A stretch of 32,201 nucleotides of DNA from an uncultured Candidatus Peribacteria bacterium (GCA_964402735.1 CAYODN010000001.1:1-32201); one strand, 5' to 3'. Positions 1,293 through 29,537 are shown, counted from the stretch's first letter. A program made the numbers and translations. Notes: generated from the sequence alone by a model not told the origin.

Positions 1293-3497
1293 TTGCAAAA
1301 AAAGTCTTTTTCGACAAATCTTGAAAAAACTATCAGAATTCTTGTAAAGGTTCCTCAATCAAATGAACAAAAAGAAGACTCGATGAGTGCTTTTTTAAGT
1401 CTCATAAATAGGATGATTCCTGAAAAAGAACCAATCGGACTCGAAATTTTGGCTCACGATTCGTTTATGCGATTTATTATAGCTTTTCCGGAAAAGCTTC
1501 GAAACATTGTGGAATCAAACCTCTATGCACGTTTTCCAAATATAGAAATCTCAGAAATCGACGAAGGGTTTCCCTTCAAGACTTTAAAATTTGCGGTTTT
1601 GGAAATGAAATTTCATAAAAACGAATTCTTTCCTCTGGCCACTCATAAATCATTAAAAGAAAATTTCCTGAGAAATTTTGCGGCTTCCGTCGGCGATGTT
1701 TCAGATCCCGAAAAAATTCTTTTTCAAATAGTCGTAAAAAAACTTTCGAAAAAAACCTCATTTAGAAAATTAAAAATTCTTTATCTTAAGCTTTTAAAAA
1801 ATAAGTCTGAAAAACACCAAAAATATTACGAAAAAACTTCCGAGCCCCTTTTTATCGGGAAAATTCGTTTGATATGTTTTTCCGATACACATGAAAACGC
1901 CGTAAAAAAACTTAAAGCGACCCTCAAAATTTTCAAAGCCCTGGATTCAAGTGTTAATAAGCTTGAAAAAGATCGAATATCAATTTCTCCGCTTATCAAA
2001 TCAAAGGTCATAAATGCGAAAATTTCCAAAGGCCAACTTTTAAATTCCGATGAAATTGCGACAATGTATCATTTCCCTTATGTCGGAAGTTTGGTTGTAA
2101 ACGCGGTAAGCACCTCTTCAAAGCGTGCGCCCGCTCCCGATATTTTGCCTGTCGAAGGCGCATCACCTGCAAAAGATATTTCAATTTTCGGGGAGACTAC
2201 TTATCGAAACGAAGGAAAGCGCTTCGGGATCAAAAGAATCGATCGTAGAAGGCATCTGTATGTCGTTGGAAAAACCGGAAGCGGAAAAAGTAAACTTCTC
2301 GAATTATTGCTTATTTCAGATATTCAAAACGGTCATGGCTGTTGTCTTATAGATCCGCACGGTGACTTGGCGGAGGAATTGCTGAATTATGTACCGAAAG
2401 AACGCATAAACGATGTCGTTTACATAAATCCGTCCGACAAAGATTATCCGATAGCCTTTAATCCGCTTGAGCCGCTTATGGATTACGAAAAACGCCAGCA
2501 TTTATGTACTTTTTTCATCGCGATTTTTCGAAAATTATTTTCTGTAAACTGGAATCCGAGGCTTGAACACATTATTCGTTTTATTGTTCTCGCCCTACTC
2601 GAAACGCCTGATTCAAACATATTGGGTATTTCCCGCATTCTTTCGGACACTACCTTTAGACAGCGGGTAATAAAACACATAAAAGACCCGATTGTGAAAA
2701 GTTTTTGGACAAGTGAGTTTGCGGGATACAACGATAAGTTCGCTAATGATGCAATCGTGCCTCTGATAAATAAAGTCGGTCAGTTTATCGCAAACCCGAT
2801 TTTACGAAACATGATCGGTCAGCAAAAAAACGCACTCAATTTCGCAAAATTTATGGATGAAGGAAAAATCGTTTTGATCAATGTTTCAAAGGGAAAACTC
2901 GGAGAAGAAAACGCGGCACTTCTCGGATCCATGTTTATCACGAAAATTCAGGAAGCGGCGCTTTCGAGGGCCGGCATCAAGGAGGAACTTCGCCGTGATT
3001 TTTATTTCTATGTTGATGAGTTTCAGAATTTCGCCACGGACGCGTTTTCGAGTATTTTATCGGAAGCGCGAAAATATCACTTGAATTTGACCATAGCCCA
3101 TCAATATATAGCACAGCTTCCGGAAGATGTGAAAGCCACGGCTTTTGGAAACGTGGGCTCAATGATCGTCTTTCCCGTGGGTGGCGATGATGCGGCTTAT
3201 TTGCATAAAGAATTCGCACCCGTATTTACGGCGGAAGATATTATTAATCTTGATGTTCGGGATATGTACATAAAAATGTCGATAGACGGAAGACTTACAC
3301 CGCCTTTTTCAGCCAAAACCATCACGGTACCTTCCGCCACTCATAATTTTTCGCAGGAAATCAAAACGCATTCACGTCTTACATACGGTAAAAATCGCGT
3401 CTCTGTCGAAAACGAAATCGCAAAATGGACATCTTCTCAAACGGATTTTTCAGAGCAAATTTCAAAAAATTCCGGTTTCCCCGAGCCCTTGGTTTAG
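1293..3497 (+). CDS. Type IV secretion coupling-protein-like (VirD4/TraD/TrwB family) P-loop ATPase
   Basis: 734-aa ORF. Walker A is VVGKTGSGKSKLLELLLISD followed by CCLIDPHGDL. Walker B is FYFYVDEFQNFAT. LTIAHQYIAQL resembles the TraD/TraG C-terminal motif. The start is uncertain: TTG at 1293 or ATG at 1383. Confidence 0.75.
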   Translation: MQKKSFSTNLEKTIRILVKVPQSNEQKEDSMSAFLSLINRMIPEKEPIGLEILAHDSFMRFIIAFPEKLRNIVESNLYARFPNIEISEIDEGFPFKTLKFAVLEMKFHKNEFFPLATHKSLKENFLRNFAASVGDVSDPEKILFQIVVKKLSKKTSFRKLKILYLKLLKNKSEKHQKYYEKTSEPLFIGKIRLICFSDTHENAVKKLKATLKIFKALDSSVNKLEKDRISISPLIKSKVINAKISKGQLLNSDEIATMYHFPYVGSLVVNAVSTSSKRAPAPDILPVEGASPAKDISIFGETTYRNEGKRFGIKRIDRRRHLYVVGKTGSGKSKLLELLLISDIQNGHGCCLIDPHGDLAEELLNYVPKERINDVVYINPSDKDYPIAFNPLEPLMDYEKRQHLCTFFIAIFRKLFSVNWNPRLEHIIRFIVLALLETPDSNILGISRILSDTTFRQRVIKHIKDPIVKSFWTSEFAGYNDKFANDAIVPLINKVGQFIANPILRNMIGQQKNALNFAKFMDEGKIVLINVSKGKLGEENAALLGSMFITKIQEAALSRAGIKEELRRDFYFYVDEFQNFATDAFSSILSEARKYHLNLTIAHQYIAQLPEDVKATAFGNVGSMIVFPVGGDDAAYLHKEFAPVFTAEDIINLDVRDMYIKMSIDGRLTPPFSAKTITVPSATHNFSQEIKTHSRLTYGKNRVSVENEIAKWTSSQTDFSEQISKNSGFPEPLV

Positions 3498-19296: not shown

Positions 19297-19368
19297 TACC
19301 GGGATTTTGGTTTTTGTATAAACTGCCTGGATTCCCGGTAATTTGACAGATATCCGTAATTCCCGGTA
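19297..19368. promoter_or_regulatory. Three copies of an ATTCCCGGTA(AT) motif around the operon promoter (putative operators)
   Basis: TACCGGGATT lies at 19297-19306 in inverted orientation (9/10 match). ATTCCCGGTAAT lies at 19331-19342, abutting the -35. ATTCCCGGTA lies at 19359-19368, spanning the spacer and the -10 edge. The direct copies are 28 bp apart, and the motif is an imperfect palindrome around CCGG. Confidence 0.45.
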
Positions 19369-19372
19369 TAAT
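19343..19372 (+). promoter_or_regulatory. Consensus sigma70-type promoter TTGACA-N18-TATAAT
   Basis: TTGACA is at 19343-19348 and TATAAT at 19367-19372. The ATG at 19379 starts 6 nt after the -10, implying a leaderless or near-leaderless mRNA. The ORF track's TTG start at 19343 is the -35 hexamer itself. Confidence 0.6.
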
Positions 19373-19378
19373 GTAAAC

Positions 19379-20338
19379 ATGAAAATACATATACCAAATA
19401 GCGTGTGGCTAGGAAATTTGGATCCGTTTTTGCAAGGATTCGATCCCCGCAATCCAGACAAACTGGAAATTACATTTAATAAAAAATGGATAGCGATTCA
19501 TCCGATGGTTTTATCAATGATCGCAGCTCTTGGTATAGACATAAAGCCTTCAAAAATAAAGTGTGAAAAATTGGAAGCCAGGTCCAAGCATTATTTGGAA
19601 AGGATGAAATTATTTGATTTTGTTAAGATAAAATCGGGAATTTCCATCAAAGAACACGATCCTTCAGGTCGATTTATTCCTCTCACTCAAATAAAGGATT
19701 CGGCATCTTTAACGGAATTCATTACCGAAGTTACTCCATTATTGCATCTGGGGCCAAAACATGCGGAACCAATCAGGTACATAATGAGTGAATTGATTAG
19801 AAACGTGCTTGAACATTCAATGTCAAAAAATGGAGCTATCGTTTCCGCTCAATATTATAAAAAAAGTAACACAATTAGAATCGGGATTGCGGATACTGGA
19901 ATTGGGATTTGGAAGTCGATAAACGAGTCCCACAATCCAAGAACCGATATTGATGCAATTCGAATGGCATTAACTCCCGGCATTACCGGAACAACAAGAA
20001 AAGAAGGTGGCACCGACCGAAATGCTGGAGCCGGGTTATTTTTCATTAAATCAATCGCTTCCGTAAATAGCGATTTTTTTGTGATTTACAGCGGAAACGC
20101 ATTGTACAAGTTGTTAAAGCGCAAAACGAAAAGAATCAAACTGGAGGCTGACCCTTTTAAGGATAGACATTCAAAAAGAAGCGATTTGCCAATTTGGAAA
20201 GGAACAATCGTTGGAATAGACTTGTCTTTGGACACCAGCCAAGAATTTTCCTTGTTATTGAGCTTGATGAATAAAACTTTAAGGGAAGCCATTAAAGAAA
20301 GAAAAAAAGAAAGATATAAAAAACCACTATTCACATGA
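19379..20338 (+). CDS. GHKL/HATPase_c ATP-binding protein (RsbW/SpoIIAB-like) with an uncharacterised N-terminal domain
   Basis: 319 aa from MKIHIPNS. The N-box is SELIRNVLEHS, G1 is IGIADTGIGI, and G2 is NAGAGLFFIKS. No DHp/H-box or TM segment was seen. The N-terminal ~130 aa contains YLERMKLFDF and GRFIPLTQI. Confidence 0.75.
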   Translation: MKIHIPNSVWLGNLDPFLQGFDPRNPDKLEITFNKKWIAIHPMVLSMIAALGIDIKPSKIKCEKLEARSKHYLERMKLFDFVKIKSGISIKEHDPSGRFIPLTQIKDSASLTEFITEVTPLLHLGPKHAEPIRYIMSELIRNVLEHSMSKNGAIVSAQYYKKSNTIRIGIADTGIGIWKSINESHNPRTDIDAIRMALTPGITGTTRKEGGTDRNAGAGLFFIKSIASVNSDFFVIYSGNALYKLLKRKTKRIKLEADPFKDRHSKRSDLPIWKGTIVGIDLSLDTSQEFSLLLSLMNKTLREAIKERKKERYKKPLFT

Positions 20339-20625
20339 TACAAATAAAACTTTTTAAAAAAGTCGGAGAATTTGCTGAAAACAAGGATATTGCCAGAGAT
20401 TTAAGATTAAAAAAACTTATTCCGGCACTAAAAAAAGGAGAAAAAATAGTACTTGATTTTGAAAACGTGGAAGGGGCAACACAATCTTTCATTCATGCTT
20501 TGATTAGCGATCTTTTTAGAAAGTTCGGAAACGAATTTTTGGATCTGGTTGAATTCAAGTCCTGTAATGATACGGTAAAAGCAATAATTTCAATTGTCGT
20601 AGACTATATGCAAGAAAGTATATGA
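20335..20625 (+). CDS. STAS-like domain protein (DUF4325-type)
   Basis: 96 aa. KIVLDFENVEGATQSFIHALISDLF matches my recollection of the DUF4325 core (v.lDF.gV..is.SF..el). An ATGA overlap links it to the upstream gene. Confidence 0.65.
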   Translation: MIQIKLFKKVGEFAENKDIARDLRLKKLIPALKKGEKIVLDFENVEGATQSFIHALISDLFRKFGNEFLDLVEFKSCNDTVKAIISIVVDYMQESI

Positions 20626-21215
20626 AAAATTATTCAAAATCCAACTTCCTCAAGAAAAATTTCTCCGCCCTTGGCGCGGTATTTGGCTTGATTTTTTATT
20701 TTTTGCTTTTTTGGTTTTTTGTTTCCGCCTTAAATCAAAATACAGATACGAATTATTTGGATGTTTTTCTCAAAATTTCCGGAATCGTTTTTCCGATCTC
20801 AATAAAAAACACGGTTTTCTTCCCGCAAATCATAGCCACACATTTATTATTAATGACAGTCTATGCGACGGTTTTTTCGTTCATGTTCAAAAAAATAAAC
20901 AAAGGCTTTACGGATAATCTGCCACTCAAGGGGGGAGTGATTGCCTCCGTTTTTTATCTCGTGTCTTTAATATTTGCATTTACGCTTATTTTGAACCTAA
21001 CGGAAGAACACGTGGACACCATAATTCTAATCTCACTATTCACGGGACACGCCTACCCGGTTTTGTCGACAAAAATTATGTCCTCATCCCCTTACATCTC
21101 TTTCTTCGGGGTACTTTTCATCATCACAACCATATATTTCATTGTAGGTGCCACAATCGGAAAACTAGTCGAAATTAGAAAAAGAAAAAGAACGGCAATC
21201 GCAAATAAAAAATAA
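20622..21215 (+). CDS. Multi-pass membrane protein (~6 TM), function unknown
   Basis: 197 aa. Six hydrophobic stretches include FSALGAVFGLIFYFLLFWFFVSAL, IIATHLLLMTVYATVFSFMF and ISFFGVLFIITTIYFIVGATIG. The tail is basic (RKRKRTAIANKK). An ATGA overlap links it to the upstream gene. Confidence 0.65.
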   Translation: MKNYSKSNFLKKNFSALGAVFGLIFYFLLFWFFVSALNQNTDTNYLDVFLKISGIVFPISIKNTVFFPQIIATHLLLMTVYATVFSFMFKKINKGFTDNLPLKGGVIASVFYLVSLIFAFTLILNLTEEHVDTIILISLFTGHAYPVLSTKIMSSSPYISFFGVLFIITTIYFIVGATIGKLVEIRKRKRTAIANKK

Positions 21216-21216
21216 A

Positions 21217-22608
21217 ATGAAACACATCCTCGTTAAAAACATCACAAAGAATAATTTAAAAAATTTTTCGGTAAAAATTCCGCTTGAAAGTCTGGTGGCA
21301 ATAGTAGGCCCGAGTGGAAGCGGAAAAACCACTCTTGTAGATGAAGTGCTATACGAAAATTCTCAGAAAAAAACTTGGGACATAAAGAACCTTCCTAAAA
21401 AAATCGATATATTAAAGCAAAAAGTTGATTTGCCGAAAACCGCTAAAAAAAGCCTTGGCGAGTATAATTTTGAAATTTTGAAAAAGAAACTTGCCTCGGT
21501 TTCAAAAGATGATTTGCTTGTACTGGACGAGCCTTGCGCCGGTTTTTGCATGGAAGAACGAAACACGATTTTAAAAATGTTGAAAGAAAAAGTGAAGAAA
21601 GGCTATTCGATTATCGCAGTGGAACACAACAAAGAGATTATTAAAAATGCCGATTACGTGATAGAACTCGGTCCCGGAGCCGGTAAATACGGAGGAAAAC
21701 TCATTTTTGAAGGAAATATCGATGAGTTTAAGAAATCGGGAACAATCACTGCAAAACACGTTTTTAAAAATTCAAAACCGGACACGCAAAACATTTCAGC
21801 ACCGAACAAAAAGAGTGTTACTATCTCAAAAATCTCGGAAAGGAATTTTAAGGATTTTTCATTTTCTTTTCCTGTGAAAAAAACGGTTTGCATCACGGGA
21901 TGTTCGGGTGCGGGAAAAACCACACTTTTGGACATAGCGTACAGATCGCTTTTTAAAGGCAGAAACGCTTGGAAAATTAAACTTAAATCAGTAAGCGTAT
22001 CCGGTAAATCCTTTATTAGAAGATCATATATAGTGCCTCAGTCACCAATAGGCGAAAACCCTTCAAGCACACTTGGCACATATACCAAAGTTTGGGACAA
22101 TATACGTAAAAATTTTGCCGACACTGCAATAAAAAAAGGACTTAAATTATCAAAATCGGATTTTTTGGCCGATAAAAAAATTCTTAGCGGAGAAAAAAAG
22201 TTTTCTCCTGAAGTTTTAAGCGTAAAAATTTCAGGGAAAAACATTAAAGATCTAATGGAGCTCACAATTGACGAAGCGCTTGATATATTCAAAAAAGACA
22301 CTTTGATTACCCGAAAACTAAAATTTTTGCAGGAGGTTGGTCTTGGCTATTTGGTGCTTGGTCAAAAATCGAGCACTTTAAGCGGAGGCGAGGCTCAAAG
22401 AGTTCGAATTGCAAACATTCTTTCCAAAAAACTCGGCGACAGATGTTTATACATTCTCGATACTCCCACAAGAGGGCTTCATCTCAAAGATATTCCGGTG
22501 TTGATCGATTCCTTCAAAAAAATTATCTACAAAAACAACACGATCTTAATCGCTGACAACAGAGAGGAAATTTTTCATTTCGTTGATTTTAGAATCGATC
22601 TTAAATAG
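21217..22608 (+). CDS. Truncated UvrA-lineage double-NBD ABC ATPase lacking all zinc modules (mini-UvrA)
   Basis: 463 aa. NBD-I has GPSGSGKTTL, LLVLDEPCAG, IIAVEHNKE and VIELGPGAGKYGGKLIFEGN. NBD-II has ITGCSGAGKTTLL, the UvrA-diagnostic IVPQSPIGENPSSTLGTYTKVWDNIRKNFA, LGQKSSTLSGGEAQRVRIA, and LYILDTPTRGLH. There are no CxxC pairs anywhere. The protein ends at FRIDLK, before the GPEGG motif. Confidence 0.85.
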   Translation: MKHILVKNITKNNLKNFSVKIPLESLVAIVGPSGSGKTTLVDEVLYENSQKKTWDIKNLPKKIDILKQKVDLPKTAKKSLGEYNFEILKKKLASVSKDDLLVLDEPCAGFCMEERNTILKMLKEKVKKGYSIIAVEHNKEIIKNADYVIELGPGAGKYGGKLIFEGNIDEFKKSGTITAKHVFKNSKPDTQNISAPNKKSVTISKISERNFKDFSFSFPVKKTVCITGCSGAGKTTLLDIAYRSLFKGRNAWKIKLKSVSVSGKSFIRRSYIVPQSPIGENPSSTLGTYTKVWDNIRKNFADTAIKKGLKLSKSDFLADKKILSGEKKFSPEVLSVKISGKNIKDLMELTIDEALDIFKKDTLITRKLKFLQEVGLGYLVLGQKSSTLSGGEAQRVRIANILSKKLGDRCLYILDTPTRGLHLKDIPVLIDSFKKIIYKNNTILIADNREEIFHFVDFRIDLK

Positions 22609-27407: not shown

Positions 27408-28337
27408 ATGATGAAAACATCTGAAAAACTCAAGCTCATACAAAAAATATCCGAATTAAGTCAGCAAAAATTGGCTGATAAGATCGGTGTAAGTTTTGTT
27501 GCTTTTAATTCTTGGATAAACGAACGAAGCCAACCCCGGAAAAAGGCTCTTGTGAAAATCGATGAAATATATAAAGAACTAACCGGCCAAAAACAAATTC
27601 CGGAAAATGTGTTAATAGCAAAAAAAAATCTCATTCAAAACAAAATTAAAAAATCCGGATCCGTTTTGAATAAAATATTGAAATACAAAGATCTCTATGA
27701 AAGATTTATTCTTTCTCTTACCTACAACTCCAATAAAATTGAGGGAAGTACTCTGTCTGAAGACGATACTGCCTCAATCATTTTCGAAGGACTTACATTG
27801 CCAAACAAAACGTTAATAGAGCAAATGGAAGCCAAAAATCATCAGACGGCAATTGATTTTATTTTTGAACATATTAAAAAAAAAGCACCCATAAACGAAG
27901 AGTTTTTACTTAGAATTCACGCAATACTTATGAATAGTATTATTCCTGACGCAGGCTTTTACCGCAGACACGGTGTTCGTATCACAGGATCAAATGTCGT
28001 GACCGCAAATTATTTAAAAATTCCTGAAAAAATGGAAGATTTTTTTGTACAATTGAATGAAAACAAACAAGATATCATTAAAAAAATAGCAACACTTCAT
28101 GCAATTTTTGAACAAATTCATCCCTTTGCGGATGGAAATGGCAGATCGGGGCGTCTTTTATTTTTAGCTCAACTTTTGGAAAAAAACATCGCACCTGCAA
28201 TAATTTACCAAGAACAAAAAAAGACCTATATCAGCTATTTAAACAAAGCTCAAATAACGGGAGACACAAGCTTGCTTGAGGATTTATTTTGCGATTCAAT
28301 CCTCGAAGGTTATAAAATTTTAGAAAGAAAATTTTAA
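27408..28337 (+). CDS. Fic family protein with N-terminal XRE-type HTH domain
   Basis: 309 aa. The HTH is LSQQKLADKIGVSFVAFNSWINERSQP. The canonical Fic motif is HPFADGNGRSGRLL. A class-II-type intramolecular inhibitory motif SNKIEG ((S/T)xxxE(G/N)) lies upstream of the core. Confidence 0.9.
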   Translation: MMKTSEKLKLIQKISELSQQKLADKIGVSFVAFNSWINERSQPRKKALVKIDEIYKELTGQKQIPENVLIAKKNLIQNKIKKSGSVLNKILKYKDLYERFILSLTYNSNKIEGSTLSEDDTASIIFEGLTLPNKTLIEQMEAKNHQTAIDFIFEHIKKKAPINEEFLLRIHAILMNSIIPDAGFYRRHGVRITGSNVVTANYLKIPEKMEDFFVQLNENKQDIIKKIATLHAIFEQIHPFADGNGRSGRLLFLAQLLEKNIAPAIIYQEQKKTYISYLNKAQITGDTSLLEDLFCDSILEGYKILERKF

Positions 28338-29063: not shown

Positions 29064-29537
29064 ATGGAATACTGGAAATTTATTAGAGAAAAAGTAGGTC
29101 AAGAAAAAGTTCTATTTAATGGCTGTATTGGTGCAATTGTAAAAGGCGATGAAATTTTACTAGTCTTTGATAAAGGTAGAAAACATTGGCAATTACCCGG
29201 TGGGCTTCAAGATCTCGAAGAATCCGTGGAACAAACGGCAATAAGGGAAATTTCAGAAGAACTGGGAATCAAAGGTACTATTAAAGAATTAATTTCTGTT
29301 TACTCGGACCCAAAATGGTCTTTTGTTTATCCAAACGGAGATCCTCTACAAATAGTTGATTTTCTATTTCTAATGGAAGTTTCAGAAGAAGAACTGGAAA
29401 AAATAAAAATTGACGAAAACGAAATCACAGAATATAATTGGTTCTCCTTTTCAGAACTTCCCGAAACTTTGCATCCAAAATGCCGCCTTATGTGCAAAGA
29501 CATACAGGAATACAAAGGACGGACATTCTTACGATAA
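29064..29537 (+). CDS. Nudix hydrolase
   Basis: Starts at MEYWKFIREK. The Nudix box is PGGLQDLEESVEQTAIREISEELG. The track's 28959 start overlaps pgeF and is rejected. Confidence 0.85.
   Translation: MEYWKFIREKVGQEKVLFNGCIGAIVKGDEILLVFDKGRKHWQLPGGLQDLEESVEQTAIREISEELGIKGTIKELISVYSDPKWSFVYPNGDPLQIVDFLFLMEVSEEELEKIKIDENEITEYNWFSFSELPETLHPKCRLMCKDIQEYKGRTFLR

Follow-up and report, generated by a model that had tools for sequence, protein, structure and literature searches.

Kinase-STAS signalling systems of two kinds, CapK/CapS and VapKSC, have been defined by Chambers et al. (EMBO J 2026; PMC13373217). CapK/CapS consists of a helix-turn-helix (HTH)-STAS-GHKL kinase and a STAS-winged HTH (wHTH) repressor controlling adjacent immune operons: single-stranded DNA (ssDNA) activates CapK, Ser54 becomes phosphorylated, the repressor dimer dissociates and the immune operon is de-repressed (PMC13373217). 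Activation of the Escherichia coli CapK requires UvrA/UvrB, and CapS operators comprise a narrow palindrome with 1-bp spacing plus a site over the -10 element (PMC13373217). In VapKSC, the kinase is of the STAS-GHKL type, the antitoxin is a STAS protein ending in an inhibitory helix, and the toxin is a PIN protein; residues 94-116 of VapS, the C-terminal inhibitory region, reach the active site of VapC (PMC13373217). Here we analyse a related gene pair, A-B, and the two genes that follow it, C and D, in a DNA stretch of 32,201 nucleotides from an uncultured Candidatus Peribacteria bacterium (GCA_964402735.1, CAYODN010000001.1:1-32201), the whole of which is hereafter called the window.

The region probably combines three evolutionarily separate units, namely, an autonomous A-B signalling cassette, a local gene C and a lineage-wide mini-UvrA, D. 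A preliminary description had presented the four genes as one tightly coupled system, located in an accessory island whose context fits a conflict or stress system, and not mappable onto any named system. Its account of the parts is largely borne out: the open reading frame (ORF) listing of the window contains four plus-strand ORFs packed in tandem, with ATGA overlaps at the A/B (20335-20338) and B/C (20622-20625) junctions and a 1-nt gap between C and D (21216); the only consensus promoter of the window precedes A; A resembles an RsbW/SpoIIAB-type GHKL ATPase without a DHp domain, and B its STAS-like DUF4325 partner; the six or so transmembrane segments proposed for C are plausible; D belongs to the UvrA lineage and is devoid of zinc and damage-recognition modules; and no sigma factor, uvrB/uvrC or permease gene is adjacent. 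The unity of the four genes, by contrast, was not upheld, because the co-occurrence check across genomes found C or D in none of 18 A loci (0/18) and none of A, B and C in the other contexts of D (0/4), a result that the description itself had named as refuting. Furthermore, as far as A-B is concerned, the combination no longer lacks a named counterpart, given that the pair belongs to the CapK/CapS-VapK/VapS kinase-STAS superfamily (PMC13373217). The features of the region, with the evidence for each in parentheses, are the following:

19297..19378, plus strand: promoter and operator of the A-B cassette (motif scans, cross-locus comparison of upstream DNA)
19379..20338, plus strand: gene A, 319 aa, VapK-like predicted Ser/Thr kinase (profile matches, homologue lengths, model)
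20335..20625, plus strand: gene B, 96 aa, DUF4325 STAS-like protein, predicted phospho-substrate of A (Pfam match, invariant block)
20622..21215, plus strand: gene C, 197 aa, lineage-specific membrane protein with 4-6 transmembrane segments, outside the conserved A-B unit (hydrophobic segments, homologue searches)
21217..22608, plus strand: gene D, 463 aa, mini-UvrA, an ABC ATPase with tandem nucleotide-binding domains (NBDs), outside the conserved A-B unit (UvrA models, structure alignment, family contexts)

A-B is the conserved unit

A scan of species-representative genomes yielded 17 A loci and contig look-ups added two; 18 independent loci (individual loci are designated by L numbers) reach beyond A. 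B lies directly downstream of A in all 18, either overlapping it or within ~50 nt, and none of them contains a homologue of C or D within the 6-8 kb fetched. Because B follows A in 18/18 loci and C or D in 0/18, the conserved unit is A-B, with C and D as its neighbours only in the window lineage. The complete A-B-C-D arrangement is repeated only in contigs that are 100% identical and all stem from one sequencing project. All-against-all clustering of the neighbouring ORFs did not reveal a third conserved gene beside A-B.

The flanks of A-B differ in every genome and consist of housekeeping genes, including guaA, gidB, PPDK, purD, purM, murG, gdh, RNase Y, mfd and ftsK. In 7 loci, the gene after B is encoded on the other strand; in ~9 it is on the same strand, where some of the genes are DNA-related (FtsK in L014 and SNF2 in L031). 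Pfam scans of the genes directly after B in 10 loci identified guaA, gidB, PPDK, MutS-like, SNF2, RNase Y and similar genes, or ORFs without a family, and no PIN protein among them. A Fic gene is found near A-B in three other loci, namely, L032 and L035 (divergent, at -1120 relative to A) and L031 (at +6.9 kb). L032 and L035 are the most similar loci and might be close relatives, and the Fic cases are too few for an association.

Homologues of A are 71-85% identical and come from several classes of the candidate phyla radiation (CPR), WOR-1 and one Nitrospirae metagenome-assembled genome (MAG); no copy was found in the viral contigs scanned with A. Few accessory gene pairs of CPR genomes are conserved as strongly as A-B.

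A promoter and operator travel with A-B

Only one sequence in the 32-kb window, TTGACA-18-TATAAT at 19343-19372, agrees with the sigma-70 consensus at 12/12 positions, the runner-up being an 11/12 match at 29410. Since the ATG of A is located only 6 nt past the end of the -10 element, the A-B mRNA is probably leaderless or near-leaderless. The promoter is overlaid with repeated half-sites. A distal inverted half-site, TACCGGGATTT, is located at 19297-19307, and an imperfect narrow palindrome, CCTGGATTCCCGG, with the half-site ATTCCCGGTA at 19331-19340, abuts the -35 element TTGACA (19343-19348), whereas a second copy of ATTCCCGGTA at 19359-19368 overlaps the -10 element TATAAT (19367-19372). 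Within the window, the exact operator 9-mer is confined to the A promoter.

For comparison across loci, ~75 nt upstream of A were examined in 19 loci, and ~95 nt were aligned for 18 of them. Despite unrelated flanks and hosts from different phyla, ~16/19 loci have a common layout which, from 5' to 3', includes the palindrome ACCGGGA(A/T)TCCCGGT abutting the -35 element TTGACA, an 18-nt spacer and a further AATTCCCGGTA running into the -10 element (TATAAT/TATACT). The core of the palindrome is CCGGGA-N-TCCCGG. In most loci, the ATG of A lies 6-15 nt past the -10 element (28-31 nt in L017 and L027), and several loci carry an inverted distal half-site ~35 nt further upstream of the palindrome. 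The block is present in L014, L019, L021-L031 and L033, and in variant form in L017, L032, L034 and L035. Over all loci, operator-like matches are concentrated between -78 and -19 with respect to A, and none was found downstream of B in any locus. A weak recurrent match at +598, inside A, was discarded because it falls on the codons of the invariant TPGITG motif, which account for it.

Among A-B copies, third-position identity is 0.33-0.53, and the rate of synonymous substitution (dS) exceeds 2.5 or is not computable, with non-synonymous rates (dN) of 0.08-0.27. Saturated synonymous sites, low dN and preservation of the operator block together show that the pair diverged anciently and evolves under strong purifying selection rather than having spread recently, and that the non-coding block is itself under selection. 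The conserved promoter/operator travelling with A-B is a new observation.

We found no consistent intrinsic terminator after B in 17 loci. In the window, one terminator-like hairpin is located inside C, at chance frequency, and no convincing terminator was found. Because the gene overlaps and the 1-nt gap leave no room for a promoter outside coding sequence and a convincing terminator is missing, transcription from the strong A-B promoter probably reads through into C and D.

Gene A: a predicted SpoIIAB-type kinase

The ORF of gene A was listed from a TTG, as 19343-20338, and contains an in-frame ATG at 19379. Among the 120 homologues listed, 119 measure 316-331 aa, in most cases precisely 319 aa, a length over which one cluster shows 100% identity; given these lengths, the start was assigned to the ATG at 19379 rather than to the TTG at 19343.

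The protein can be divided into an N-terminal regulatory domain (residues ~1-122), a SpoIIAB-like GHKL domain (~123-283) and a clade-specific basic C-terminal helix (284-319). The match to HATPase_c_2 (8e-6) falls slightly short of the Pfam cutoff; the GHKL motifs are invariant across the family, including the N-box (E138/N142), G1 (D172-x-G174-x-G176) and G2 (G210-G211-T212...G217-x-G219). Mean column identity in the A family is ~80%. The N-domain, which is of mixed beta/alpha structure in the model, carries the invariant aromatic residues F17 and W37, and no HTH family was detected in A by Pfam searches. An AlphaFold2 model built from a shallow alignment (>=71% identity) reached a predicted local distance difference test score (pLDDT) of 80 and a predicted template modelling score (pTM) of 0.82, and with normalisation to the target, the structure that it matches best is SpoIIAB (1tid_C; template modelling score 0.70, probability 1.00), followed by the catalytic ATP-binding (CA) domains of histidine kinases. 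Motifs and model thus support the predicted identity of A, a GHKL kinase of the RsbW/SpoIIAB type that carries an additional N-domain. Assignment as a histidine kinase was considered and rejected, as the CA-domain matches are sub-threshold only and family-model searches did not detect HisKA/DHp.

The C-terminal helix (...KERKKxRYKKPxF), in which R308, P316 and F318 are invariant, is missing from the VapK-like and Alicyclobacillus proteins described below. As it is the only clade-specific protein feature to point to, we consider this helix a candidate operator-binding element.

Gene B: a STAS-like partner

The sole Pfam match of B is to DUF4325 (59.9 bits, 1.9e-16), a family for which our literature search returned three incidental mentions only. 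The B family shares the invariant block G47-A-T49-Q-S51-F-I-H-A-L-I-S58, and in the predicted model, which was built from a single sequence, the block with T49/S51 opens the second long helix (alpha2). The phospho-acceptor serine of SpoIIAA-type STAS proteins sits at the N-terminus of alpha2. T49/S51 of B therefore lie at the phospho-acceptor position, making B the predicted substrate of A. B ends at residue 96, right behind the last STAS helix (H79-95 in the model).

The top match of B among Protein Data Bank sequences is 'Escherichia VapS' (9z7o), with E-values of 0.083 for the single sequence and 0.023 for the profile. Alignment with a VapS-like protein encoded in L048 (see below) gave an E-value of 7e-4 and placed the VapS serine within +/-1 residue of T49/S51. 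The VapS proteins themselves match DUF4325: the E. coli VapS fragment (9z7o) scores 54.3 bits, above the Pfam threshold, and the L048 protein 32.3 bits. This agrees with a previous report of PIN.4 genes coupled to DUF4325 genes (PMC5499597). Profile-profile comparison of the N-domain, GHKL domain and C-terminus of A with the B family, based on low-diversity alignments, detected no relationship.

Relatives of A-B in other systems

L048 is a prophage contig with a bona fide vapKSC operon that encodes a 286-aa kinase, an overlapping 117-aa DUF4325 protein and an overlapping 195-aa PIN protein, followed by an integrase. The A family aligns with the VapK-like protein of this operon with an hhalign probability of 97.4% (E 1e-11, 176 columns, A residues 67-247), an alignment that spans the rear of the N-domain, the linker and the GHKL domain. 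For the N-domain of A alone, comparison with the STAS region of VapK, based on a low-diversity alignment, gave no significant match (E 0.39).

A bare two-gene pair is also found on the Alicyclobacillus plasmid pAACI02 (L047), where an A-like protein (27% identity, hhalign 99.3%) is followed by a DUF4325 gene. Upstream of this pair, at 412-430 of L047, a perfect 12-bp palindrome, AACCGATCGGTT, overlaps TTGACA, perhaps an operator arrangement that is analogous to that of A-B without being related to it. Ahead of the pair lies a small gene for a sigma-factor-like HTH protein. Furthermore, in the PADLOC DrmA model PDLC02567 (1750 positions), residues 37-259 of A match positions 30-249 and residues 35-90 of B match positions 334-390, which suggests that in some genomes, a kinase-STAS module is fused to the DISARM helicase DrmA.

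Gene D: a widespread mini-UvrA

D scores 319 bits against UvrA models, compared to equivalog cutoffs of 1147 and 730, and its best matches in the Protein Data Bank are solved UvrA structures. The alignment to Thermotoga maritima UvrA covers three segments only (residues 1-53, 505-708 and 743-904), and D lacks signature domain I with its zinc modules, UvrB-binding domain and insertion domain, as well as the C-terminal zinc finger; the translation contains no CxxC pairs. D is thus supported as a UvrA-lineage ATPase stripped of the zinc and damage-recognition modules. In the 33 family members compared, NBD-I retains the catalytic D104-E105 and E136-H137 and has the degenerate signature SLGE, whereas NBD-II has DTP for DEP and ADN for EHN, with an invariant LSGGE signature. 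Such a set of motifs is typical of an asymmetric ABC ATPase, in which one ATP site is consensus and the other degenerate.

The D family (~462 aa, 47-73% identical; listed members P0002-P0120, loci L001-L007 and L036-L039) is distributed among Patescibacteria (Falkow-, Magasanik-, Uhr- and Parcubacteria) and Nanoarchaeota; a metagenome scan with D alone returned 3 distant UvrA-like loci. Only four independent genomic contexts were examined, and none of them (0/4) includes A, B or C. In two, D is located between pilus genes and a SPOUT methylase and between PfkB and DJ-1, respectively; in the other two, those of the closest relative (73% identical; L036-L039), it lies behind a Tsp45I-type restriction-modification (R-M) cassette or a RadC/DNA-methylase cassette. 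The cassette upstream of this relative varies by sample, comprising either Tsp45I-like R-M with an N6/N4 methylase or RadC/DNA methylase with ORFs without assignment. The region upstream of D, held by A-B-C in the window, may be a hotspot for cassette insertion. Overall, this ATPase family is widespread in CPR and DPANN organisms, clearly under selection and uncharacterised, and its gene stands alone. A literature search for Patescibacterial UvrA turned up no mention of a truncated form.

Among A-D, only D produced ABC-ATPase matches in PADLOC, namely, to mad3 (2e-40) and mad8, the mad3 match being far weaker than that to UvrA. In the MADS definition, MAD6, MAD7 and MAD8 are mandatory and mad3 is accessory (bioRxiv 10.1101/2023.03.30.534895). 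Assignment of D to MADS as mad3 was rejected, given that the mandatory MAD6-8 are absent and no obvious MADS-type components were recognised among the Pfam-scanned flanking genes.

Gene C and the lineage context

C has 4 strong hydrophobic segments and 2 weaker candidate stretches identified by eye, and matches neither PIN nor any other Pfam family. A word-indexed search of 5.8 billion clusters returned C alone, and an exhaustive HMMER search of 1.84 billion representatives identified one half-length relative, adjoining dcd in L040, a 673-kb CPR contig. By tblastn, a full-length relative with 51% identity was located in L040 between the DUF6580 and Ser-hydrolase genes. Relatives of C were found only in L040/L041, among backbone genes and unaccompanied by A, B or D. 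Because these relatives lie in the L040 backbone common to the window, C belongs to the local backbone of the window lineage and not to a travelling module.

From ~4800 to 31600, nearly every gene of the window is on the plus strand, forming a long array of small accessory enzymes: at least 6 GNAT acetyltransferases, two NUDIX and two HIT proteins, dcd, cytidine deaminase, nucleoside deoxyribosyltransferase, PCC, aldo-keto reductase and Cu-oxidase_4, with Fic, MNT-type nucleotidyltransferases (NTases) and a NikA-like gene scattered between them. Much of this array is syntenic with L040, though rearranged. The backbone common to both comprises DUF6580, the Ser-hydrolase, dcd, nucleoside deoxyribosyltransferase, aldo-keto reductase, Cu-oxidase_4, the NikA-like gene, PCC, a methyltransferase and a C39-like peptidase. 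Where a HicAB module had been named initially, a NikA-like ORF was found, whose relative comes after HicA in L040. The placement of the operon in an accessory island fitting a conflict or stress system, as initially proposed, is borne out only in part: a Fic gene (27408-28337) and MNT-type NTases are indeed present in the window, but elsewhere, A-B is embedded in housekeeping surroundings and not in defence islands. What surrounds the operon is mainly a series of small GNAT/NUDIX/HIT enzymes and not a defence island. The left end of the window (1293-3497) codes for a 734-aa protein with matches to HerA/DUF87 and TrwB-type coupling-protein ATPases, a hint that a conjugative or DNA-translocation element lies nearby.

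A model of A-B and its alternatives

We propose that A-B is probably an autonomous, bare two-gene signalling cassette, which carries its own promoter and operator. By analogy with described kinase-STAS systems, an intracellular cue, most likely ssDNA or another signal of damage or infection, would be sensed between the N-domain and the kinase domain of A; A activated in this way might phosphorylate B on T49 (or S51), whereupon phospho-B would swap its binding partner and the promoter of the cassette would be de-repressed. Nothing points to C or D working with A-B, and the tight packing of the four genes is a lineage-specific juxtaposition. In compact CPR genomes, operon-like packing of this kind does not amount to evidence for a functional system.

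Several points weigh against the likely reading of the region as three separate units with a self-contained A-B switch. The activating signal of A is proposed purely by analogy; A and B have no recognisable DNA-binding domain, and autoregulation of the cassette is something we infer. The STAS nature of the first ~66 residues of A is not demonstrable by profile comparison, the single-sequence model of B matches STAS folds weakly (E >= 0.25), and outside the common Pfam family, the similarity between B and VapS is weak (E 0.023 and 7e-4). The protein alignments are shallow, and some non-CPR matches, those from the Nitrospirae and Gammaproteobacteria MAGs, come from short contigs and might reflect binning errors. 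Finally, C and D may be regulated by A-B locally, in the window, where a functional link between them is conceivable.

If A-B-C-D were one conflict or stress system, the kinase-STAS pair would be its switch, with the membrane protein and an effector mini-UvrA under its control. The tight coupling of the genes behind a single strong promoter, the Fic and MNT-type genes nearby and the moderate PADLOC match of D to mad3 could be read in this way. However, C and D are missing from all 18 independent A-B loci, relatives of D never occur with A, B or C, those of C reside elsewhere in the backbone, and A-B-C-D exists only in the 100%-identical contigs of one population; moreover, mad3 is an accessory component, MAD6-8 are absent and D scores far higher to UvrA. 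We regard a four-gene system as very improbable. A looser connection, in which A-B gates transcription of whatever lies downstream, like CapK/CapS, and the mini-UvrA is damage-inducible in the window lineage, has several points in its favour: the CapKS operators share the 1-bp-spaced narrow palindrome and the site over the -10 element, E. coli CapK activation depends on UvrA/UvrB, the conserved A-B operator sits on a strong promoter with no recognisable terminator after B in any locus, and a same-strand gene follows B in ~9 loci, in some cases a DNA-related one (FtsK in L014, SNF2 in L031). Yet B has no wHTH, a second operator copy is not found downstream of B in any locus, in 7 loci the gene after B is encoded on the other strand, the downstream genes are unrelated housekeeping genes (PPDK, DUF4012) and the adjacency to D is unique to one population, so that gating of downstream genes appears unlikely.

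Similarly unlikely, and perhaps slightly more so, is that A-B represents a toxin-antitoxin or abortive-infection pair, in which A would be toxic through phosphorylation of an essential target or ATP burning, B would serve as a pseudo-substrate antitoxin, and the complex would autorepress the operator. Two overlapping genes with palindromes over their own promoter, a patchy distribution over phyla and plasmids, and the related VapKSC, which is a toxin-antitoxin system, are all compatible with such a pair, as are the A-like and B-like segments at the N-terminus of the PADLOC DrmA model and the Fic genes, divergently upstream in L032 and L035 and present in the window as well. The conservation, however, exceeds what is usual in a conflict gene (mean column identity ~80%, dS saturated), the neighbourhoods are of the housekeeping kind rather than defence islands, and no copy was found on the viral contigs scanned. 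In addition, we know of no GHKL-kinase toxin. A more far-reaching version of the self-contained switch, which we advance as a rather improbable speculation, would make A-B a complete self-regulating device without an effector gene, in which the kinase-STAS complex binds the operator without an HTH, perhaps via the C-terminal helix of A, and senses DNA damage or infection in Patescibacteria; in the window lineage, it would have captured a UvrA-like ATPase by read-through, creating a damage-inducible mini-UvrA. To our knowledge, Patescibacteria generally lack a classical LexA/SOS response.

Comparison with known systems

D shares with UvrA the tandem ABC NBDs, the UvrA-specific inter-NBD linker and signature domain II, but is 463 aa long compared to ~940 aa, with all three zinc modules and the UvrB-binding and insertion domains missing.

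The SpoIIAB/SpoIIAA and RsbW/RsbV modules are among the closest known systems to A-B: the GHKL domain of A has its best structural match in SpoIIAB, and B is a single-domain STAS protein with Ser/Thr at the N-terminus of alpha2. The A-B arrangement differs from these modules in that A has an additional ~120-aa N-domain and a C-terminal helix and that the kinase gene comes first. Scans of the immediate flanks in 11 other loci and the window did not find a sigma factor, and, in contrast to SpoIIAB/RsbW modules, neither a sigma factor nor a PP2C phosphatase gene is adjacent to A-B in any locus; the small sigma-like HTH gene upstream of the distant Alicyclobacillus pair is the sole such case.

With VapKSC, A-B shares a kinase composed of an N-domain and a GHKL domain without an HTH and an overlapping small DUF4325 STAS gene with a conserved Ser/Thr opening alpha2. 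In contrast to VapKSC, no PIN/VapC gene follows in the 18 A-B loci, B stops at 96 aa and has no counterpart of the inhibitory helix at the C-terminus of VapS (94-116), and A has the extra basic C-terminal helix; the CCGGGA-type operator of A-B is absent from the vapKSC locus examined, and the hosts of A-B are mostly Patescibacteria. The likeness to CapK/CapS lies in the kinase-STAS gene order and in the promoter, with its 1-bp-spaced narrow palindrome and site over the -10 element, a layout that would imply autoregulation controlled by phosphorylation. Unlike CapK, A lacks an N-terminal HTH, and unlike CapS, B lacks a wHTH; the half-sites differ as well (CCGGGA for A-B, TTAA for CapK/CapS), and neither a second operator nor an immune operon follows B.

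Given that the PIN gene, the inhibitory helix, the wHTH and the HTH are all missing, A-B is a relative of CapK/CapS and VapKSC and a member of neither system. The CapKS and VapKSC sensors are known with a DNA-binding domain or a toxin, whereas the A-B clade has neither, which raises the questions of what a bare kinase-STAS switch controls and what binds its operator. Set beside these better-described relatives, A-B offers a possible way into the stress and DNA-damage signalling of Patescibacteria, where regulation is almost unstudied.

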